A stretch of DNA of 64,000 nt from Escherichia coli. GTDB lineage: Bacteria > Pseudomonadota > Gammaproteobacteria > Enterobacterales > Enterobacteriaceae. This document shows, piece after piece, positions 896-51,683 of this stretch. Under the pieces are notes generated by a model that did not search any database, was not told the DNA's origin, and worked only from the letters and a program-made list of their open reading frames with translations. The stretch is taken from the NCBI RefSeq assembly GCF_003334335.1, contig NZ_QOWQ01000004.1; one strand, given 5' to 3'. Made by a program: the position numbers and the translations under genes. How positions within the stretch are numbered: the first letter of the stretch is position 1; each line of letters starts with the position of its first letter.

Positions 896-1594
896 CTAAC
901 CCGTAATCCCCAATAGTGCCGAAGCACTCGCCTTACCGCTCAACAACTCATTGGTCATACCCTGCCAGGCGATGCGCCCGTCGGCGACTACTACCGAGCG
1001 CGTGGCGATCCGCGCCGCATCTTCCACGCTGTGCGACACCATCAATAGCGTCATTTTTTGCTGCTGGCAGCTCGTGCTCACCAGCGTCAACATCTCCTGA
1101 CGTAACGCCGGATCGAGCGCAGAGAACGGTTCATCGAGCAATAAAATCGGCTGTTCGCGTACCAGACAACGCGCTAACGCCACTCGCTGTCGCTGACCGC
1201 CGGAAAGCTCGCCCGGTAACCGCGCCATTAAATTATCAATCCCCATCTGGCGGGCGATAGCGTGCATTTTCCCCTGCTGTACCGCGTTCAGTTTCAATCC
1301 CGGATTTAGCCCCAGCCCGATGTTCTGTGCGACCGTCAGGTGGCTGAACAGGTTGTTCTCCTGAAACAGCATCGACACCGGACGGCGTGACGGCGGCATA
1401 GTTGTGTGATCTACGCCATCGATAGTCAGCGAACCGCTGGCTGGCGTCAGAAAACCGGCGATCAAATTCAGCAGGGTACTTTTACCCGCGCCGCTTGGCC
1501 CGAGGATCGCCACCTGCTCGCCGCGTTCCACCGTTAAGCTAAAACGCATCGGCAAATGGTGGTAAAGCCAGGTGATATCAGTCAGTTTTAACAT
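896..1594 (-). CDS. thiQ: thiamine ABC transporter ATP-binding protein
   Basis: ORF 896..1615 trimmed to internal Met ([13 protein letters not shown]); Walker [13 protein letters not shown] signature [13 protein letters not shown], Walker B LLLDEP; overlaps thiP 3' end. Confidence 0.9.
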
Positions 1595-3188
1595 TTCGCC
1601 CCGGTAGTTTTTCAATCACGGTAAACAGCAGAAAACAGAGCAGCAGCAGAATTAACGCGGTGACCGCACCGTCCTGGCTGCGATAGGAGCCAATTTGCTG
1701 GTAGAGATAAAACGGCAGGGTGCGGAAATCATCGTTACCGAACAACGCCACCACGCCAAAATCACCAATCGACAGCACGCATGCAAAGGCCAGCGCCTGC
1801 GCCAGTGGACGTTTCAGGGCGCGCAGCTCCACCACTTTTAAGCGTGACCAGCCTTCAATCCCCAGCGACTGACATAACATGCTGTAGCGGGCGGTGATAT
1901 CGCGCATCGGGTTTTCCAGCACTTTCAGCGCATAAGGGATCGCCATTAACGCATTGGTGAAAATCACAATGCCGTCAGCAGATTGTGGCAGGCCGATAGT
2001 GTTGTTGAGCAGTAAAAAGAAGCCGGTAGCCAGCACAATCCCCGGCATGGCGAGGATCAACATGCCGCTCATCTCCAGCACCTGACCCGCCAGCATTTTC
2101 TGCCGCGCCCGCAGTTCGCGACTGCTCCATAGCAGCATCATGGTCAGCACTACGCACAATACACCTGCCGCCAGCGCAATACGCAACGAGGTCCACAGCG
2201 CCTGCCACAGCACCGGTTGTGCCAGCACTTCCGGCAACTGGCGATTTACCCCATCGACGATCACCGCCAGTAACGGTGGCAGCAACAGCAGCAGCGCCAG
2301 CACAATTAACACCGTGTCGCAAATGCGGCTATGCAGACGATCGTCCGGGTCGCGCCAGCCTTGCAGCAGCGTGGTGCCGGGCGCAATGGCCTTACTCAAT
2401 CGCTGACTCAACAGCACCAGCCCGAGGCAGCACACCATCTGGAGCAGCGCCAGCATTGCCGCGCGGGCAGGATCGTAGTCGTAACTCAGCGCCTGATAGA
2501 TTGCCAGCTCGATAGTGGTCGCCTGCGGACCGCCCCCCAGCGATAGCACGGTGGCGAAGCTGGCGAAACAGAGCATAAAGATAAGCGCAGCAACCGGCGG
2601 GATTTGTCGCCGTAACCACGGCCATTCGACGAAGCGGAAAAAATGCCAGCTACGCATCCCAAGCTGGGCGGCAAGTTGACGCTGTTCGCCGGGGATGTTT
2701 TCCAGTGCCTGGAGTAATAAGCGGCTCGCCATCGGCAGATTAAAAAACACATGGGCCAGCAAAATACCTTGCAGGCCGTAGGGCGAAAAGGTCCACTCCA
2801 GACCGAGCGATTGGCAGAGTGTTGCCAGCCAGCCCTGGCGACCATAGACGCTAAGAATGCCGAAAACAGCGACCAACACCGGGAGGATCAAGGTCATTGC
2901 ACACAGACGCAACAGCGCCAGCCGACCCGGAAAGCGCCTGCGATAGAGCGCGCGGGCGAGGAATATCGCGGGTATGACAGAGAGCAGTGCCGAGAGAAAC
3001 GCCTGCCAGAAGGAGAAGCGCACCACATGCCACAGATAGCTGTCCTGCCAGACTGCCACCCAGTCATCCTGCGGCGCGTTCCACCACAGGGCGAGAAACG
3101 CCGCCAGCGCAACCGCTACCACCAGCGTGGTGGCGCTTACACCTGGAATTAACCAGCCGGGAATTAACGGCTGACGGCGCGTTGCCAT
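1578..3188 (-). CDS. thiP: thiamine ABC transporter permease (duplicated TM domain)
   Basis: 536-aa highly hydrophobic ORF between thiB and thiQ with overlapping stop/start junctions. Confidence 0.9.
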
Positions 3189-4147
3189 TCGCTAATCCAT
3201 GCCTGACGTTGTGCCGCCACTTCGGCTGGCGTGAACTCCAACGTGGTTGCGGGTTTGGTCAATTTTTCAAAACCGGCAGGCAGCGTGACGTTTGCCACCG
3301 GATACATCCAGTTGCCGGTTGGGATCGCATTCTGGAAAGCCGGAGAAACCATAAACTGGAGGAATTTTTGCGCCAGCTCCGGCTGCTTGCTGGCAGCGGT
3401 GCGGGCGGCGACTTCCACTTGCAGATAGTGACCTTCGCTGAAGTTCGCGGCGGCGTAGTTATCTTTCTTCTCTTCGAGAATGTGATAAGCCGGAGAGGTG
3501 GTGTAACTCAGTACCAGATCGCTTTCACCTTTTAAAAACAGGCCGTAGGCTTCGCTCCAGCCTTTGGTGACCGTGACCGTTTTCTTCGCCAGTTTCTGCC
3601 AGGCTTGTGGGGCGTCATCGCCATAGACTTTTTGCATCCATAGCAACAGACCCAGCCCCGGTGTACTGGTGCGCGGATCCTGATAAATCACCCGCCAGTT
3701 TTGATCGCTCTCAACCAGTTCTTTCAGGCTTTGTGGCGGGTTTTTCAGTTTGTTCTTGTCATAAACGAAGGCGAAGTAGCCATAATCAAACGGTACGAAA
3801 GTGTCATTATTCCAGCCGCCGGGAACGTTAACGGCATCCGCTGCCACACCGCTTTTGGCAAACAGTCCGGTTTTACTGGCGGCGTCTAACAGGTTGTTAT
3901 CCAGCCCCAGCACCACATCGGCTTTACTGTTTTTGCCTTCCATCCGTAGACGGTTGAGAAGCGAAACGCCATCTTCCAGCGCCACCAGTTTCAGTTCGCA
4001 ATTACAGTCGGCTTCAAAGGCTTTTTTAACCACCGGACCAGGCCCCCAGTCGGCGGCGAAGGAATCGTAGGTATAAACAGTCAGAACGGGTTTAGCGAAA
4101 ACGGGCGCTGTGCACAGCAACAGCAGGGGCAGACATTTTTTTAACAC
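3164..4147 (-). CDS. thiB: periplasmic thiamine-binding protein
   Basis: ORF trimmed to MLKKCLPLLLLCTAPVFA signal peptide; periplasmic binding protein fold; first gene of thiBPQ. Confidence 0.9.
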   Translation of the reverse strand: MLKKCLPLLLLCTAPVFAKPVLTVYTYDSFAADWGPGPVVKKAFEADCNCELKLVALEDGVSLLNRLRMEGKNSKADVVLGLDNNLLDAASKTGLFAKSGVAADAVNVPGGWNNDTFVPFDYGYFAFVYDKNKLKNPPQSLKELVESDQNWRVIYQDPRTSTPGLGLLLWMQKVYGDDAPQAWQKLAKKTVTVTKGWSEAYGLFLKGESDLVLSYTTSPAYHILEEKKDNYAAANFSEGHYLQVEVAARTAASKQPELAQKFLQFMVSPAFQNAIPTGNWMYPVANVTLPAGFEKLTKPATTLEFTPAEVAAQRQAWISEWQRAVSR

Positions 4148-4182
4148 TTTGCACCTCAAAAAAGAGTGGCAAAGGACTTGAG

Positions 4183-4275
4183 AAGGAGCCTCAAATCCCT
4201 TCGCCGGCGTTATCCGGATCAGGTTCGACGGGTATTTTCTCAGCGCACGCGTACGCGTGGCACCCCGTTGAGAAC
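4183..4275 (-). promoter_or_regulatory. TPP (THI-box) riboswitch in thiBPQ leader
   Basis: On minus strand: GGGGTGCCACGCG...CTGAGAAAATACCCGTCGAACCTGATCCGGATAACGCCGGCGAAGGGA, matching conserved TPP aptamer elements (CUGAGA, ACCUGAUC, GGAUAAUGCC-like, GAAGGGA); boundaries approximate. Confidence 0.75.
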
Positions 4276-4310
4276 GGCGTTAGTGTAGTGATTTTGTTAT
4301 CAACCAGCAA

Positions 4311-5966
4311 TCATGGATCCGGTGGCGCAAACCACGCTGATTTAAAATCGAACCAGCCGAGGGTATTCATGCGCAGGCCGCGCATACTGCGTTGCCCCTG
4401 AATGATCAGCCAGTGGTGCAATAATGGCACCATCGCTTTGCTGGCGACCAGTTGCTGGCACCAGTTCGCCAGATTCATCTCGCCATTGCGCCAGCGAGCA
4501 GCGTCGGCTTGCCAGTCAATGGGAATGCAATGTTGTAGCAGTGGCACTTCGCATAAATGTGCGAAAACAGAGAAGTCCAGCGGCAGGGTAAAGTTGGCGC
4601 TGTTTAGCCAGATATCACTTTCGATCTCTCCTGTATGCCACTGATCGTAGTCGATCTCTTTGATTTTCAGCGTGACCTGGTGACTTGCCAGAATCTGCTG
4701 CATGATCCCGGCAATCACCCGATGCTCACTGTGATCCTGATAAAAGGTTAGGGTGAGGCTTTCCAGGCCAGCCGGTTTTTCGCTCTTTATGGTGCGGGCA
4801 TGGTGCCAACGGGGGAGCAGTCCATAAGCCGGGAACCACAGTTGCTGGTACTGTTCCTCAGCGAAATAGACCAGATTAGTTGGAGAAAGCACATAGCTTA
4901 CCCAGTCCCTGACTTGCTGATTCGCCCCGCGATGGGTGCGGCTGTCGAACAGTAAATAGTAGCAACCTTCCTCCAGGCGGCTTTCAATCTCTTTTTCCTC
5001 GCCCTGTGGACCTTTTAGCATCAGCCCTCCGGCTGGCTCGTCGGCAATTTCCGGCAGAACCCAGACGTTAACTTCGTCGATTAATGCCCGGTAACCGAAG
5101 AAGTCATCGAATGCCTGAATTTTCAGTTGATTGGTGCTGTTGCGAATCACCGCATACGGACCGGTGCCGATGGGATGGCTGGCAAAGTTACTGAGGGTTT
5201 CCCATTCGCGCGGCAGGATCATCGCCGGAACTTGCCCCAGCAGTAACGGTAACCAGCGGTCCGGTTGCGTGAGATGGATATCCAGCGTCCAGGGCGTCGG
5301 CGACACAATGTCAGCAATATGCGAATAGAGCGGCAGCGTATTGATTCGTTTTAAAGAGGCGATCACATCGTCCATTTCCAGTTCACGACCATGGTGAAAA
5401 TGGACTCCTGGACGCAAAAAGAAACGCCAGTGAAGCGGTGAAATTTGCTGCCAGTGGTGGGCGATGTCTGCTTCCAGTTCCCCATTTTCCTCATTTATGC
5501 GCGTTAGCGAACTGAAGATTTGCCGGGCGATATGGGTTTCGGAACGGCGCAATGCGCTGCCAGGTAGCAGATTACGCAACGGACGATAGTAGAGCACGCG
5601 CAGGATGTGCCGCCCCTGGCGGAAGCTGCGGCCCAGATGAGAAACCAGCATTTGCCGCACAGTCGCTTTGTCGCCAACCAACTGCACCAGTTGATCGATA
5701 CGATCCTGCTCCAGCAGGTCTTCCGCCCGCTGTTGCTGAAGCGCCAGCCCGGTATAGAGGAATGTCAGACGCGAGCGTTTACCGCGCCCGACTTCCGCTT
5801 CCCACGTCAGCCAGCCGCGATCCTGCATGGTGTTGAGCAGGGTGCGCATATGACGACGCGAGCAGCTCAATAACGCTGCCAGTTCGTTGAGCGTTGTGTC
5901 CTGCGATTTACCCTCGCAGCATTGCCACAGGCGGATGAACTGTTGTTGCAGACGAGCAGATGGCAT
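4311..5966 (-). CDS. sgrR: transcriptional regulator SgrR (HTH plus solute-binding domain)
   Basis: ORF 4311..5987 trimmed to [10 protein letters not shown]; N-terminal HTH, C-terminal solute-binding-protein-like domain; divergent from sgrS. Confidence 0.9.
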
Positions 5967-6033: not shown

Positions 6034-6260
6034 GATGAAGCAAGGGGGTGCCCCATGCGTCAGTTTTATCAGCACTATTTTACCGCGACAGCGAAGTTGT
6101 GCTGGTTGCGTTGGTTAAGCGTCCCACAACGATTAACCATGCTTGAAGGACTGATGCAGTGGGATGACCGCAATTCTGAAAGTTGACTTGCCTGCATCAT
6201 GTGTGACTGAGTATTGGTGTAAAATCACCCGCCAGCAGATTATACCTGCTGGTTTTTTTT
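6034..6260 (+). ncRNA. sgrS: SgrS small RNA (dual-function: base-pairing RNA that also encodes SgrT)
   Basis: Divergent from sgrR; contains the sgrT ORF; 3' stem-loop CCAGCAGATTATACCTGCTGG followed by T8 ending at 6260; 5' end approximate. Confidence 0.75.
6055..6186 (+). CDS. sgrT: small protein SgrT (43 aa)
   Basis: Internal Met of ORF 5887..6186: MRQFYQHYFTATAKLCWLRWLSVPQRLTMLEGLMQWDDRNSES. Confidence 0.7.
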   Translation: MRQFYQHYFTATAKLCWLRWLSVPQRLTMLEGLMQWDDRNSES

Positions 6261-6287: not shown

Positions 6288-7466
6288 ATGATCTGGATAA
6301 TGACGATGGCTCGCCGTATGAACGGTGTTTACGCGGCATTTATGCTGGTCGCTTTTATGATGGGGGTGGCCGGGGCGCTACAGGCTCCTACATTGAGCTT
6401 ATTTCTGAGTCGTGAGGTTGGCGCGCAACCTTTCTGGATCGGCCTCTTTTATACGGTGAATGCTATTGCTGGGATCGGCGTAAGCCTCTGGTTGGCAAAA
6501 CGTTCTGACAGTCAGGGCGATCGGCGAAAACTGATTATATTTTGCTGTTTGATGGCTATCGGCAATGCGCTATTGTTTGCATTTAATCGTCATTATCTGA
6601 CGCTTATCACCTGTGGTGTGCTTCTGGCATCTCTGGCCAATACGGCAATGCCACAGTTATTTGCTCTGGCGCGGGAATATGCGGATAACTCGGCGCGAGA
6701 AGTGGTGATGTTTAGCTCGGTGATGCGTGCGCAGCTTTCTCTGGCATGGGTTATCGGTCCACCGTTGGCCTTTATGCTGGCGTTGAATTACGGCTTTACG
6801 GTGATGTTTTCGATTGCCGCCGGGATATTCACACTCAGTCTGGTATTGATTGCATTTATGCTTCCGTCTGTGGCGCGGGTAGAACTGCCGTCGGAAAATG
6901 CTTTATCAATGCAAGGTGGCTGGCAGGATAGTAACGTACGGATGTTATTTGTCGCCTCGACGTTAATGTGGACCTGCAACACCATGTACATTATTGATAT
7001 GCCGTTGTGGATCAGTAGCGAGTTAGGATTGCCAGACAAACTGGCGGGTTTCCTGATGGGGACGGCAGCTGGACTGGAAATACCAGCAATGATTCTGGCT
7101 GGCTACTATGTCAAACGTTATGGTAAGCGGCGAATGATGGTCATAGCAGTGGCGGCAGGAGTACTGTTTTACACCGGATTGATTTTCTTTAATAGCCGTA
7201 TGGCGTTGATGACGCTGCAACTTTTTAACGCTGTATTTATCGGCATTGTTGCGGGTATTGGGATGCTATGGTTTCAGGATTTAATGCCTGGAAGAGCGGG
7301 GGCAGCTACCACCTTATTTACTAACAGTATTTCTACCGGGGTAATTCTGGCTGGCGTTATTCAGGGAGCAATTGCACAAAGTTGGGGGCACTTTGCTGTC
7401 TACTGGGTAATTGCGGTTATTTCTGTTGTCGCATTATTTTTAACCGCAAAGGTTAAAGACGTTTGA
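6288..7466 (+). CDS. setA: sugar efflux transporter (MFS)
   Basis: 392-aa ORF with about 12 predicted TM helices; position downstream of sgrS. Confidence 0.85.
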   Translation: MIWIMTMARRMNGVYAAFMLVAFMMGVAGALQAPTLSLFLSREVGAQPFWIGLFYTVNAIAGIGVSLWLAKRSDSQGDRRKLIIFCCLMAIGNALLFAFNRHYLTLITCGVLLASLANTAMPQLFALAREYADNSAREVVMFSSVMRAQLSLAWVIGPPLAFMLALNYGFTVMFSIAAGIFTLSLVLIAFMLPSVARVELPSENALSMQGGWQDSNVRMLFVASTLMWTCNTMYIIDMPLWISSELGLPDKLAGFLMGTAAGLEIPAMILAGYYVKRYGKRRMMVIAVAAGVLFYTGLIFFNSRMALMTLQLFNAVFIGIVAGIGMLWFQDLMPGRAGAATTLFTNSISTGVILAGVIQGAIAQSWGHFAVYWVIAVISVVALFLTAKVKDV

Positions 7467-12196: not shown

Positions 12197-12244
12197 GGTT
12201 TGGGTCCTTGTCTCTTTTAGAGCGCCTCGCTTCGGGCATAAAAA

Positions 12245-12275
12245 AACCCGCGCAATGGCGCGGGTTTTTTGTTTG
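12245..12275 (-). terminator. leu operon attenuator (intrinsic terminator)
   Basis: Minus strand AAACCCGCGCCATTGCGCGGGTTTTTTT: GC stem-loop plus T-run immediately downstream of leuL. Confidence 0.7.
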
Positions 12276-12288
12276 ACTGCGTGCTGGC

Positions 12289-12375
12289 TTAATGCTGGAT
12301 GCCGCTCACTCGTCTACCGCGCAAAGAAGATGCGTTTAGTAGTAGTAGACCGATAAAGCGAACGATGTGAGTCAT
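12289..12375 (-). CDS. leuL: leu operon leader peptide (28 aa, four consecutive Leu codons)
   Basis: Minus-strand [31 protein letters not shown] with CTA CTA CTA CTA run, followed by attenuator hairpin. Confidence 0.8.
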
Positions 12376-13034
12376 TAAATCAGCTCCAGATGAATGCGAT
12401 ATGCTTTTAGAGTTACTGGATACAAAAACGGATGTCAACCCTGACGCAATAAAAACGTCCCGCCAGCGTGAGTTCTGCATCCGTAAAATTAGCTAATTGT
12501 GCTGCGGTGGTTAAAGTAAGCGATATTAATTTCTGCTTAACTACCGACGCTTTTCATCGGTTGACATATTTCAGCATAAATTTTTGCATCTAATCAACGA
12601 GGAAAAAGGGGACAAAATGCACGCGTTGCAAAACCTATCCTGATGATTTGTATTGAATTATATGTTTTGCGATTTTTTTTGATATTGATTTGGTGAATAT
12701 TATTGATCAATTAATGTTAAGAATTAATGCATTAAATATATAAATTAATTATTAAATAAGCACATTTAATCCATTTTGTAGATGATTGAGTATTCGCGGT
12801 AGTTATGATTAGATTGTTTTCGCAACAAAAACATTATGGATTATTATGCTGTGGTAAATGACTCATTCCACGGCAATGGATTCTGTTTTTATCAGAACCC
12901 GTATCTTTATGTTTTCCGAATTTTACTCATTTTGCTTTTTCTTATTTTATATGCATGATAAATCATATTCTTCAGGATTATTTCTCTGCATTCCAATAAG
13001 GGAAAGGGAGTTAAGTGTGACAGTGGAGTTAAGT

Positions 13035-32652: not shown

Positions 32653-33911
32653 TCAAGGCGACGGACAGAAAACTGGTAGTAGGACTGGAGATTGGTACCG
32701 CGAAGGTTGCCGCTTTAGTAGGGGAAGTTCTGCCCGACGGTATGGTCAATATCATTGGCGTGGGCAGCTGCCCGTCGCGTGGTATGGATAAAGGCGGGGT
32801 GAACGACCTCGAATCCGTGGTCAAGTGCGTACAACGCGCCATTGACCAGGCAGAATTGATGGCAGATTGTCAGATCTCTTCGGTATATCTGGCGCTTTCT
32901 GGTAAGCACATCAGCTGCCAGAATGAAATTGGTATGGTGCCTATTTCTGAAGAAGAAGTGACGCAAGAAGATGTGGAAAACGTCGTCCATACCGCGAAAT
33001 CGGTGCGTGTGCGCGATGAGCATCGTGTGCTGCATGTGATCCCGCAAGAGTATGCGATTGACTATCAGGAAGGGATCAAGAATCCGGTAGGACTTTCGGG
33101 CGTGCGGATGCAGGCAAAAGTGCACCTGATCACATGTCACAACGATATGGCGAAAAACATCGTCAAAGCGGTTGAACGTTGTGGGCTGAAAGTTGACCAA
33201 CTGATATTTGCCGGACTGGCATCAAGTTATTCGGTATTGACGGAAGATGAACGTGAACTGGGTGTCTGCGTCGTCGATATCGGTGGTGGTACAATGGATA
33301 TCGCCGTTTATACCGGTGGGGCATTGCGCCACACTAAGGTAATTCCTTATGCTGGCAATGTCGTGACCAGTGATATCGCTTACGCCTTTGGCACGCCGCC
33401 AAGCGACGCCGAAGCGATTAAAGTTCGCCACGGTTGTGCGCTGGGTTCCATCGTTGGAAAAGATGAGAGCGTGGAAGTGCCGAGCGTAGGTGGTCGTCCG
33501 CCACGGAGTCTGCAACGTCAGACACTGGCAGAGGTGATCGAGCCGCGCTATACCGAGCTGCTCAACCTGGTCAACGAAGAGATATTGCAGTTGCAGGAAA
33601 AGCTTCGCCAACAAGGGGTTAAACATCACCTGGCGGCAGGCATTGTATTAACCGGTGGCGCAGCGCAGATCGAAGGTCTTGCAGCCTGTGCTCAGCGCGT
33701 GTTTCATACGCAAGTGCGTATCGGCGCGCCGCTGAACATTACCGGTTTAACGGATTATGCTCAGGAGCCGTATTATTCGACGGCGGTGGGATTGCTTCAC
33801 TATGGGAAAGAGTCACATCTTAACGGTGAAGCTGAAGTAGAAAAACGTGTTACAGCATCAGTTGGCTCGTGGATCAAGCGACTCAATAGTTGGCTGCGAA
33901 AAGAGTTTTAA
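32649..33911 (+). CDS. ftsA: cell division protein FtsA (actin-like ATPase)
   Basis: 420-aa ORF; actin/Hsp70 fold; ATGA overlap with ftsQ. Confidence 0.95.
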
Positions 33912-33971
33912 TTTTTATGAGGCCGACGATGATTACGGCCTCAGGCGACAGGCACAAATCGGAGAGAAACT

Positions 33972-35123
33972 ATGTTTGAACCAATGGAACTTACCAATGA
34001 CGCGGTGATTAAAGTCATCGGCGTCGGCGGCGGCGGCGGTAATGCTGTTGAACACATGGTGCGCGAGCGCATTGAAGGTGTTGAATTCTTCGCGGTAAAT
34101 ACCGATGCACAAGCGCTGCGTAAAACAGCGGTTGGACAGACGATTCAAATCGGTAGCGGTATCACCAAAGGACTGGGCGCTGGCGCTAATCCAGAAGTTG
34201 GCCGCAATGCGGCTGATGAGGATCGCGATGCATTGCGTGCGGCGCTGGAAGGTGCAGACATGGTCTTTATTGCTGCGGGTATGGGTGGTGGTACCGGTAC
34301 AGGTGCAGCACCAGTCGTCGCTGAAGTGGCAAAAGATTTGGGTATCCTGACCGTTGCTGTCGTCACTAAGCCTTTCAACTTTGAAGGCAAGAAGCGTATG
34401 GCATTCGCGGAGCAGGGGATCACTGAACTGTCCAAGCATGTGGACTCTCTGATCACTATCCCGAACGACAAACTGCTGAAAGTTCTGGGCCGCGGTATCT
34501 CCCTGCTGGATGCGTTTGGCGCAGCGAACGATGTACTGAAAGGCGCTGTGCAAGGTATCGCTGAACTGATTACTCGTCCGGGTTTGATGAACGTGGACTT
34601 TGCAGACGTACGCACCGTAATGTCTGAGATGGGCTACGCAATGATGGGTTCTGGCGTGGCGAGCGGTGAAGACCGTGCGGAAGAAGCTGCTGAAATGGCT
34701 ATCTCTTCTCCGCTGCTGGAAGATATCGACCTGTCTGGCGCGCGCGGCGTGCTGGTTAACATCACGGCGGGCTTCGACCTGCGTCTGGATGAGTTCGAAA
34801 CGGTAGGTAACACCATCCGTGCATTTGCTTCCGACAACGCGACTGTGGTTATCGGTACTTCTCTTGACCCGGATATGAATGACGAGCTGCGCGTAACCGT
34901 TGTTGCGACAGGTATCGGCATGGACAAACGTCCTGAAATCACTCTGGTGACCAATAAGCAGGTTCAGCAGCCAGTGATGGATCGCTACCAGCAGCATGGG
35001 ATGGCTCCGCTGACCCAGGAGCAGAAGCCGGTTGCTAAAGTCGTGAATGACAATGCGCCGCAAACTGCGAAAGAGCCGGATTATCTGGATATCCCAGCAT
35101 TCCTGCGTAAGCAAGCTGATTAA
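33972..35123 (+). CDS. ftsZ: cell division GTPase FtsZ
   Basis: 383-aa ORF; tubulin signature [12 protein letters not shown]; C-terminal [14 protein letters not shown]. Confidence 0.97.
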
Positions 35124-36945: not shown

Positions 36946-39651
36946 ATGCTAATCAAATTGTTAACTAAAGTTTTCGGTAGTCGTAACGATCGCACCCTGC
37001 GCCGGATGCGCAAAGTGGTCAACATCATCAATGCCATGGAACCGGAGATGGAAAAACTCTCCGACGAAGAACTGAAAGGGAAAACCGCAGAGTTTCGTGC
37101 ACGTCTGGAAAAAGGCGAAGTGCTGGAAAATCTGATCCCGGAAGCTTTCGCCGTGGTACGTGAGGCAAGTAAGCGCGTCTTTGGTATGCGTCACTTCGAC
37201 GTTCAGTTACTCGGCGGTATGGTTCTTAACGAACGCTGCATCGCCGAAATGCGTACCGGTGAAGGAAAAACCCTGACCGCAACGCTGCCTGCTTACCTGA
37301 ACGCACTAACCGGTAAAGGCGTGCACGTAGTTACCGTCAACGACTACCTGGCGCAACGTGACGCCGAAAACAACCGTCCGCTGTTTGAATTCCTTGGCCT
37401 GACTGTCGGTATCAACCTGCCGGGCATGCCAGCACCGGCAAAGCGCGAAGCTTACGCAGCTGACATCACTTACGGTACGAACAACGAATACGGCTTTGAC
37501 TACCTGCGCGACAACATGGCGTTCAGCCCTGAAGAACGTGTACAGCGTAAACTGCACTATGCGCTGGTGGACGAAGTGGACTCCATCCTGATCGATGAAG
37601 CGCGTACACCGCTGATCATTTCCGGCCCGGCAGAAGACAGCTCGGAAATGTATAAACGCGTGAATAAAATTATTCCGCACCTGATCCGTCAGGAAAAAGA
37701 AGACTCCGAAACCTTCCAGGGCGAAGGCCACTTCTCGGTGGACGAAAAATCTCGCCAGGTGAACCTGACCGAACGTGGTCTGGTGCTGATTGAAGAACTG
37801 CTGGTGAAAGAGGGCATCATGGATGAAGGGGAGTCTCTGTACTCTCCGGCCAACATCATGCTGATGCACCACGTAACGGCGGCGCTGCGCGCTCATGCGC
37901 TGTTTACCCGTGACGTCGACTACATCGTTAAAGATGGTGAAGTTATCATCGTTGACGAACACACCGGTCGTACCATGCAGGGCCGTCGCTGGTCCGATGG
38001 TCTGCACCAGGCTGTGGAAGCGAAAGAAGGTGTGCAGATCCAGAACGAAAACCAAACGCTGGCTTCGATCACCTTCCAGAACTACTTCCGTCTGTATGAA
38101 AAACTGGCGGGGATGACCGGTACTGCTGATACCGAAGCTTTCGAATTTAGCTCAATCTACAAGCTGGATACCGTCGTTGTTCCGACCAACCGTCCAATGA
38201 TTCGTAAAGATCTGCCGGACCTGGTCTACATGACTGAAGCGGAAAAAATTCAGGCGATCATTGAAGATATCAAAGAACGTACTGCGAAAGGCCAGCCGGT
38301 GCTGGTGGGTACTATCTCCATCGAAAAATCGGAGCTGGTGTCAAACGAACTGACCAAAGCCGGTATTAAGCACAACGTCCTGAACGCCAAATTCCACGCC
38401 AACGAAGCGGCGATTGTTGCTCAGGCAGGTTATCCGGCTGCGGTGACTATCGCGACCAATATGGCGGGTCGTGGTACAGATATTGTGCTCGGTGGTAGCT
38501 GGCAGGCAGAAGTTGCCGCGCTGGAAAATCCGACCGCAGAGCAAATTGAAAAAATTAAAGCCGACTGGCAGGTACGTCACGATGCGGTACTGGAAGCAGG
38601 TGGCCTGCATATCATCGGTACCGAGCGTCACGAATCCCGTCGTATCGATAACCAGTTGCGCGGTCGTTCTGGTCGTCAGGGGGATGCTGGTTCTTCCCGT
38701 TTCTACCTGTCGATGGAAGATGCGCTGATGCGTATTTTTGCTTCCGACCGAGTATCCGGCATGATGCGTAAACTGGGTATGAAGCCAGGCGAAGCCATTG
38801 AACACCCGTGGGTGACTAAAGCGATTGCCAACGCCCAGCGTAAAGTTGAAAGCCGTAACTTCGACATTCGTAAGCAACTGCTGGAATATGATGACGTGGC
38901 TAACGATCAGCGTCGCGCCATTTACTCCCAGCGTAACGAACTGTTGGATGTCAGCGATGTGAGCGAAACCATTAACAGCATTCGTGAAGATGTGTTCAAA
39001 GCGACCATTGATGCCTACATTCCACCACAGTCGCTGGAAGAAATGTGGGATATTCCGGGGCTGCAGGAACGTCTGAAGAACGATTTCGACCTCGATTTGC
39101 CAATTGCCGAGTGGCTGGATAAAGAACCAGAACTGCATGAAGAGACGCTGCGTGAGCGCATTCTGGCGCAGTCCATCGAAGTGTATCAGCGTAAAGAAGA
39201 AGTGGTTGGTGCTGAGATGATGCGTCACTTCGAGAAAGGCGTCATGCTGCAAACGCTTGACTCCCTGTGGAAAGAGCACCTGGCAGCGATGGACTATCTG
39301 CGTCAGGGTATCCACCTGCGTGGCTACGCACAGAAAGATCCGAAGCAGGAATACAAACGTGAATCGTTCTCCATGTTTGCAGCGATGCTGGAGTCGTTGA
39401 AATATGAAGTTATCAGTACGCTGAGCAAAGTTCAGGTACGTATGCCTGAAGAGGTTGAGGAGCTGGAACAACAGCGTCGTATGGAAGCCGAGCGTTTAGC
39501 GCAAATGCAGCAGCTTAGCCATCAGGATGACGACTCTGCAGCCGCAGCTGCACTGGCGGCGCAAACCGGAGAGCGCAAAGTAGGACGTAACGATCCTTGC
39601 CCGTGCGGTTCTGGTAAAAAATACAAGCAGTGCCATGGCCGCCTGCAATAA
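36946..39651 (+). CDS. secA: preprotein translocase ATPase SecA
   Basis: 901-aa ORF; Walker A MRTGEGKT; C-terminal zinc motif [14 protein letters not shown]. Confidence 0.97.
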
Positions 39652-39672
39652 AAGCTAACTGTTGAAGTAAAA

Positions 39673-39696
39673 GGCGCAGGATTCTGCGCCTTTTTT
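39673..39696 (+). terminator. candidate intrinsic terminator/attenuating hairpin between secA and mutT
   Basis: GGCGCAGGATTCTGCGCC followed by TTTTTT. Confidence 0.55.

Positions 39697-40096: not shown

Positions 40097-40100
<4 letters not shown>
39711..40100 (+). CDS. mutT: 8-oxo-dGTP diphosphatase (Nudix)
   Basis: 129-aa ORF; Nudix box GGKIEMGETPEQAVVRELQEEVGI. Confidence 0.9.
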
Positions 40101-40300
<200 letters not shown>

Positions 40301-51523: not shown

Positions 51524-51683
51524 TGATTTTTCTGGTAAAAATTATCCAGAAGATGTTGTAAATCAAGCGCATATAAAAGCGCGGCAACTAAACGTAGAAC
51601 CTGTCTTATTGAGCTTTCCGGCGAGAGTTCAATGGGACAGGTTCCAGAAAACTCAACGTTATTAGATAGATAAGGAATAACCC

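Follow-up and report, generated by a model that had tools for sequence, protein, structure and literature searches.

The window, a stretch of 64,000 nucleotides of Escherichia coli DNA, carries the thiBPQ operon on its minus strand. Family models identified the genes as follows.

3164..4147, minus strand: thiB (tbpA), the periplasmic thiamine/TPP-binding protein and first riboswitch-controlled gene (TIGR01276 equivalog, 647 bits, cutoff 317)
896..3188, minus strand: thiP and thiQ, the rest of the thiBPQ operon
1578-3188, minus strand: thiP (NF006953, 1189 bits)
896-1615, minus strand: thiQ open reading frame (NF008039, 445 bits; the family model aligns from residue 8)

The neighbouring gene is sgrR, whose product is matched by the NF010149 equivalog with 1127 bits and whose stop codon occupies 4313-4311. 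The first-pass annotation, made from the sequence alone, had proposed that a TPP riboswitch lies in the leader between sgrR and thiB, upstream of the thiB start, and that it accounts for a spacer of 160 bp; RefSeq annotation and the equivalog models confirm this location, and the spacer measures 163 nt from the sgrR stop TGA (4313-4311) to the thiB GUG (4147-4145). A program-made list of open reading frames places the beginning of thiB at 4159, on a TTG codon; both RefSeq and the published experiments use the GUG at 4147 instead.

Several other RNA elements were recognized in the window. Divergent from sgrR lies the small RNA SgrS (6034-6260, plus strand; RF00534, 228.8 bits), with the small sgrT ORF annotated by RefSeq in the SgrS region and followed by setA (ORF 6288-7466), which is the standard E. 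coli arrangement. Further along we found the leucine operon leader (12240-12389, minus strand; RF00512, 145.8 bits), two tandem copies of naRNA4/CssrE (40100-40176 and 40216-40293, plus strand; 77.8 and 78.4 bits), and Rfam gathering-score matches to PssrA (33891-33980, plus strand; 105.5 bits), STnc40 (39627-39696, plus strand; 84 bits) and tp2 (51568-51681, minus strand; 103.4 bits).

To identify the element in the thiB leader, we used the covariance check that had been proposed with the initial claim, and the result was positive. The TPP model RF00059 matched the minus strand at 4277..4178 with 65.9 bits, where the gathering score is 54.3 (E = 1.9e-11, the search space being 12 kb on both strands and 4227 Rfam families), and the alignment spans model positions 1-105 of 105, so that the match is full-length and not truncated. 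The RefSeq 'TPP riboswitch' feature (L001 2624-2723) translates to window 4277-4178, exactly the bases of the Rfam match. The five TPP-aptamer elements named by the first-pass annotation were all recovered on the minus strand in the claimed order, each quoted motif occurring once in the leader.

4178..4277, minus strand: Rfam TPP match (RF00059), comprising the aptamer and a few flanking bases; the RefSeq 'TPP riboswitch' feature is identical
4266-4259, minus strand: motif GGGGUGCC
4243-4238, minus strand: motif CUGAGA
4224-4217, minus strand: motif ACCUGAUC
4215-4206, minus strand: motif GGAUAACGCC
4202-4196, minus strand: motif GAAGGGA

The interval originally assigned to the riboswitch (4183-4275) falls inside the Rfam match and covers the whole aptamer together with a few linker bases; the expression platform (4183-4145) lies outside that interval, an omission rather than an error.

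The base pairs of the Rfam alignment define the aptamer, on the minus strand throughout.

4190..4272, minus strand: aptamer core, a three-way junction (pairs of the Rfam alignment)
4272-4268 with 4194-4190, minus strand: P1
4267-4262 with 4235-4229, minus strand: P2
4261-4255 with 4250-4243, minus strand: P3
4243-4238, minus strand: J3-2, CUGAGA
4223-4221 with 4200-4198, minus strand: P4
4217-4214 with 4207-4204, minus strand: P5

Standard pairs are present at 22 of the 23 paired positions of the alignment, the exception being a G-A at a P4 position (4220/4201), and P1 closes both arms of the junction, P2-P3 (the pyrimidine sensor) and P4-P5 (the pyrophosphate sensor). The ligand pocket is likewise complete, with CUGAGA in J3-2 and ACCUGAUC...GGAUAAxGCC...GCG.AGGGA in P4/P5, in order; that these pocket sequences contact the ligand is established from the crystal structure of thiM (Serganov 2006, cited in PMC10578472). 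The sole departure from the RF00059 consensus is the absence of the optional P3a stem (10 model positions deleted), which explains why the score is only moderately higher than the gathering score. The element is located on the same strand as thiB-thiP-thiQ (minus) and directly upstream of these genes.

We compared the leader across the Enterobacteriaceae. A scan with ThiB gave 80 orthologous loci in this family, with ThiB proteins 81-98% identical, and we built an alignment of 59 sequences from the window copy and the 58 leaders of other species that have no interruption. The ligand-pocket columns were invariant in all 59 aligned leaders. When the pairs of the OFF model (aptamer plus Shine-Dalgarno [SD] hairpin) were scored in the 53 distinct orthologous leaders, 97.3% of cells were paired. 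P3 showed compensatory changes at 5 of its 7 pairs, amounting to 48 cells, a level reached by none of 500 shuffles. P1, P2, P4 and P5 were nearly unvarying in Enterobacteriaceae, with one G-U change and two mismatches in P1, and because there is essentially no variation, the helices other than P3 are uninformative at this depth. A strict regular expression for the aptamer missed 20 of the 80 ortholog loci; these misses arise from inserts in P3 and from truncation of the aptamer in L067 and of the locus itself in L033, and not from absence of the riboswitch.

These comparisons also bear on whether the RF00059 match could be a chance resemblance, or a decayed aptamer that no longer functions. 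Nothing speaks for such a reading except the moderate margin between 65.9 bits and the gathering score of 54.3, and set against it are the E value of 1.9e-11, the invariance of the aptamer core in the uninterrupted leaders of 58 other species, the compensatory changes in P3, and the published response to the ligand (PMC10578472, PMC11487190, PMC8609307). We regard it as vanishingly improbable.

Downstream of the aptamer, the leader contains two short sequences in duplicate. UCUCAA occurs at 4273-4268 (the 5′ strand of P1) and again at 4183-4178 in the linker, and UUGAGG occurs at 4194-4189 (the 3′ strand of P1) and again at 4159-4154, where it contains the SD. The following features make up the expression platform.

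4168..4183, minus strand: 3′ strand of the anti-P1/antisequestering helix, UCUCAAGUCCUUUGCC (complementarity, folding, orthologs)
4147..4174, minus strand: SD/start-codon sequestering hairpin (every fold predicts 4174-4164 with 4157-4147)
4154..4157, minus strand: thiB Shine-Dalgarno sequence GAGG, 6 nt upstream of the GUG
4145..4147, minus strand: thiB start codon GUG (RefSeq CDS start; U130A mutant, PMC11487190)

The first five bases of UCUCAAGUCCUUUGCC, UCUCA (4183-4179), repeat the 5′ strand of P1 (4273-4269), and UCUCAAGUCCUUUGCC as a whole (4183-4168) is complementary to the 3′ half of the aptamer, GGCGAAGGGAUUUGAGG (4205-4189). The resulting anti-P1 helix has 16 bp and one bulged G, with a predicted energy of -21.3 kcal/mol on its own, and it excludes P1, P4 and P5 as well as the 5′ arm of the SD hairpin (4174-4169). 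Two sets of pairs close the sequestering hairpin, CUUUGC (4174-4169) against GCAAAG (4152-4147) and CUC (4166-4164) against GAG (4157-4155), so that the SD and the initial G of the GUG lie within it. In the orthologs, 96% of the cells of the SD hairpin were paired and 7 of its 9 pairs were invariant; for the ON helix 95.6% of cells were paired and no pair had changed on both sides. As the strands of the ON helix are almost invariant, its comparative support consists of conservation and not covariation. Outside the aptamer, the blocks CUCAA, CCUUUGCC and AGGUGCAAAGUG were invariant in the 59 leaders, and the two hairpin loops between them vary freely. This combination of invariant blocks and variable loops would be the expected pattern if both alternative pairings were under selection.

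Folding predictions were obtained for the full leader, for constrained structures and for nascent transcripts of limited length. With the aptamer enforced, the SD was paired (probability of being unpaired 0.00-0.01) and the linker was unpaired (P = 0.77-1.0). In length-limited folding, the anti-P1 helix was the minimum free energy (MFE) structure at nascent lengths of 115-125 nt. At equilibrium, the full leader closed the SD hairpin with or without the aptamer, and the extended ON structure was 2.5 kcal/mol less stable than the MFE. Enforcing the ON helix still left the SD mostly paired, through the small CUC/GAG helix (probability of being unpaired 0.13-0.15). Nearest-neighbour thermodynamics thus fails to give release of the SD, which implies that kinetic trapping or the ribosome is needed for the ON state. 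We rejected equilibrium MFE folding as proof of the ON state, the antisequestering helix being the MFE only in length-limited folds. The ON state is best viewed as kinetically set or ribosome-assisted, in line with the literature.

A scan for intrinsic terminators found none in 4050-4600, and the leader does not have the platform of an intrinsic terminator, namely a GC-rich hairpin with a U-tract before the start codon. This absence fits translational control. By its structures, their energies and the orthologs, the leader has instead the two parts of a translational OFF switch of the thiM/thiB type, an SD hairpin and an antisequestering helix that is exclusive of P1.

The leader has already been dissected experimentally, and residue numbers in the published work can be placed on the window by comparison with the sequence. 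In the numbering of Berman 2023 (PMC10578472), +1 corresponds to 4277, G17 to 4261, nts 5-9 of the P1 5′ strand to 4273-4269, nts 85-89 of the P1 3′ strand to 4193-4189, and the essential linker nts 95-99 to 4183-4179. In that of Grondin 2024 (PMC11487190), +1 corresponds to 4275, G35 to 4241, G121 to 4155 and U130 to 4146.

4275..4277, minus strand: transcription start region (back-calculated from published residue numbers against the sequence)

In a reporter, TPP represses expression from the thiB leader, and mutants in the binding site (aptamer) are constitutively ON (PMC10578472). A mutation that weakens the sequestering stem abolishes the response to TPP, deletion of nts 95-99 (window 4183-4179) results in a constitutive OFF state, and SHAPE-informed models show the antisequestering stem extending without TPP (PMC10578472). 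Transcripts made in vitro were all full-length whatever the TPP concentration, which shows that there was no intrinsic termination (PMC10578472). Translational and transcriptional lacZ fusions of the leader are also repressed by TPP, and the G35C, G121C and U130A mutants act as the model predicts: G121C, in the SD, results in low and unregulated expression, and U130A, in the start codon, abolishes translation (PMC11487190). Toeprinting showed that 30S binding is blocked by TPP, and sensing of TPP by the thiB leader is more efficient co-transcriptionally (PMC11487190). The TPP-dependent control of the transporter that the first-pass annotation predicted has therefore been published as TPP repression through this exact leader (PMC10578472, PMC11487190, PMC8609307).

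The timing of the decision has been studied as well. Pausing of RNA polymerase has been mapped to nt 104 (window 4172), 117 (window 4159) and 136 (window 4140) (Chauvier 2021, PMC8609307), and the TPP-sensing window was placed between nt 104 and 117 (PMC8609307). [quoted passage not shown] RNase H probing gave a Kswitch of about 362 nM at EC-117, and there is smFRET evidence too (PMC10578472, PMC11487190, PMC8609307 for the experimental evidence as a whole). Our length-limited folds agree with formation of anti-P1 in the published 117-nt transcript.

The duplicated hexamers permit, on paper, a simpler arrangement, in which the second UCUCAA (4183-4178) would pair directly with the SD-containing UUGAGG (4159-4154) in the OFF state and with the UUGAGG of the P1 3′ strand (4194-4189) in the ON state; both hexamers are exactly duplicated. 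Such an arrangement predicts that loss of the linker copy leads to constitutive ON expression, but deletion of 4183-4179 gives constitutive OFF (PMC10578472). Moreover, our aptamer-enforced folds leave the linker unpaired (P = 0.77-1.0) and pair the SD with the local CUC (4166-4164), and the linker sequence of most orthologs is GCUCAA, with an SD side that varies (UGAGG, AGAGG, AAAGG) without matching changes in the linker. We rejected direct pairing of linker and SD on the basis of the unpaired linker in constrained folding and the published deletion phenotype, and consider it very improbable.

Together, these results indicate, with a probability of about 0.96, that the element is the known E. 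coli thiB (tbpA) TPP riboswitch, which switches expression off chiefly at the step of translation initiation. Its mechanism is the one established by experiment on the same sequence (Berman 2023, Grondin 2024, Chauvier 2021). Transcription starts at about 4277-4275 and the first ~88 nt fold into the TPP aptamer (P1 to P5). If TPP binds before the polymerase has reached the start codon, P1 stays closed, leaving the linker 4188-4175 single-stranded and allowing the hairpin 4174-4164 with 4157-4147 to enclose GAGG and the G of GUG. With the SD and this G enclosed, 30S binding consequently fails and thiBPQ is not translated (OFF). Without TPP, UCUCAAGUCCUUUGCC (4183-4168), led by its copy of the P1 5′ strand, invades the 3′ half of the aptamer (4205-4189), and the 16-bp anti-P1 helix destroys P1, P4 and P5 and removes the 5′ arm of the SD hairpin, exposing the ribosome-binding site (ON). 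The decision is made co-transcriptionally, within a window whose limit is set by formation of the anti-P1 helix. In this scheme the identity of the aptamer, the complementarities, the ortholog conservation and the predicted order of folding come from the present analysis, and the TPP dependence, the 30S block, the need for the linker and the sequestering stem, and the kinetic window come from published experiments.

Control of translation initiation may be accompanied by a second layer, in which TPP also lowers the level of thiBPQ mRNA through Rho termination or RNase E cleavage in the early thiB coding sequence. Transcriptional lacZ fusions with 11-12 codons of thiB are repressed 1.6- to 3.9-fold by TPP, and a 2.4-fold repression persists in the start-codon mutant U130A (PMC11487190); a role of Rho was proposed by Bastet et al. 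2017, as cited in PMC11487190. However, bicyclomycin was without effect on repression in a construct with 4 codons and only full-length transcripts were obtained in vitro (PMC10578472), and we found no intrinsic terminator in 4050-4600. The mRNA-level effect is thus disputed, a TPP-dependent drop (PMC11487190) standing against the lack of a bicyclomycin effect (PMC10578472), and we put the existence of both layers at a little below even odds. A second layer would extend the translational explanation and not replace it.

The leader also gives rise to SroA, a stable 5′ fragment of ~90 nt, which has been detected as an RNA species derived from the thiB riboswitch and which might act in trans as a small regulatory RNA. 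According to the review that describes it, a Salmonella sroA deletion strain is attenuated in mice, but the same review calls the function of SroA 'unclear', and the deletion also removes the cis control of thiBPQ, which could alone explain the phenotype. Moreover, the leader sequence has no target-pairing region beyond the aptamer, and no intrinsic terminator was found that would give SroA a defined 3′ end. A trans role for SroA is accordingly doubtful. More broadly, it is unlikely that the leader does something beyond the cis gating of thiB, whether through SroA in trans or through a Rho-independent drop in mRNA (for example by RNase E, within the first ~12 codons of thiB), both of which have been raised in the literature. 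The preferred reading remains that of a cis-acting OFF switch on translation initiation.

Upstream of the transcription start region we infer a promoter from the position of the published +1.

4282..4310, minus strand: putative weak sigma-70 promoter (by eye from the sequence, relative to the published +1)

The putative hexamers are a -35 element TTGCTG (4310-4305) and a -10 element TACACT (4287-4282) separated by a 17-nt spacer, and they agree with the consensus at 7 of 12 positions. A sigma-70 scan of 4050-4600 returned no site at a threshold of 9 of 12, and its silence on the putative promoter follows from the 7 matches being fewer than the 9 required. Low native expression of thiB has been reported (PMC11487190). 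An insertion of ~1 kb is found directly after the sgrR stop (window 4311-4313) in ~1,050 of 5,400 E. coli genomes, among them O157:H7 and O55:H7. In one O157:H7 record (L002 497-1535) the insertion contains espY2, which encodes a T3SS effector and lies on the opposite strand. Since the match resumes at 4312 after the insertion, the putative thiB promoter and the riboswitch are left intact.

Within the species, a 301-nt stretch that contains the leader is 100% identical to many RefSeq E. coli chromosomes and was matched in 5400 of 5426 complete E. coli genomes. The 301-nt query had no match in 26 of the 5426, and in strain UTME-10 (NZ_CP157104.1) only its sgrR part (query positions 1-97) was matched. 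A few E. coli therefore are without the thiB leader, or have a disrupted one.

In some relatives, the orthologous aptamer is interrupted. In ~18 of the 80 species, including Citrobacter, Pseudocitrobacter, the Klebsiella oxytoca group and Raoultella, an insert of 60-216 nt is present in the P3 loop.

About locus positions 900-1100: P3-loop inserts, in L005, L010, L013, L026, L030, L041, L042, L049, L053, L058, L062, L066, L069, L074, L076 and L081

The inserts fold as coaxial extensions of P3, and the aptamer core is intact on both sides of them. Those of at least ~130 nt contain GTGACTGGGGTGAGCG, which we take to be the ERIC2 primer motif, and the one insert tested, from L026, is a dispersed repeat that matches each E. 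coli genome at 12 places (median). When 20 loci were rescanned with Rfam at the gathering score, 13 had no match, comprising 12 with larger inserts and the truncated aptamer of L067; an ERIC-type insert in P3 thus hides the riboswitch from Rfam-based annotation. In the literature that covers both ERIC repeats and riboswitches, represented mostly by titles and the opening of abstracts, we found no account of the P3 case.

Two further variants were observed among the ortholog loci. Citrobacter sp. wls619 (L010, about 1075-1190) has a second ERIC-like insert, with CGCTCACCCC and GCTCCTGGGGAT, located between the 5′ arm of the SD hairpin and the SD, which makes the hairpin loop ~125 nt longer. In a Pluralibacter metagenome-assembled genome (MAG; L067, 900-1210), nothing is left of the switch upstream of thiB but the final ~17 nt of its aptamer (GGCGAAGGGAUUUGAGG) and the platform, the 5′ three-quarters of the aptamer having been replaced by unrelated sequence. 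This locus may be either a decapitated switch, predicted to be constitutively ON, or an artefact of the MAG assembly. The loci with P3 inserts are natural variants for asking how much extra RNA in P3 the co-transcriptional sensing window tolerates.

The sole new material of this study lies outside the window, namely the ERIC-type repeat that interrupts the P3 loop and, in one case, the loop of the SD hairpin. In the thiB leader itself nothing is new: it is an already known, RefSeq-annotated and experimentally dissected vitamin-B1-sensing switch ahead of thiBPQ. A TPP riboswitch upstream of thiB/tbpA was reportedly predicted by Rodionov et al. in 2002. For the window, the identification is a matter of routine annotation, which accounts for the spacer between sgrR and thiB and puts thiBPQ under feedback by TPP. 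As one of the three TPP riboswitches of E. coli, the thiB leader is a model of kinetically controlled co-transcriptional sensing that has already been published.

Compared to known systems, the element is the same as the published E. coli thiB/tbpA riboswitch, whose RNA is SroA; the residue numbers map exactly and we found no difference. E. coli thiM shares the aptamer class and is a translational OFF switch as well. thiM is the crystallised model TPP aptamer, and presumably has the same compact form without the optional P3a stem (CUGAGAAAUACCC). Both leaders set an anti-P1/anti-sequestor stem against an SD-sequestering stem, and they have been called similar (PMC10578472, PMC8609307). Unlike thiB, thiM controls the thiMD operon of salvage kinases and its platform sequences differ, and Rho-dependent termination within the coding region is documented for thiM (PMC11487190), whereas for thiB it is disputed. 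The thiC riboswitch of E. coli is larger and has a Rho-binding site inside the riboswitch (PMC11487190), in contrast to the thiB leader of ~130 nt with no demonstrated internal Rho site; thiC nevertheless resembles thiB in its ligand, its aptamer class, its co-transcriptional sensing and its regulatory pauses near the start codon (PMC11487190).
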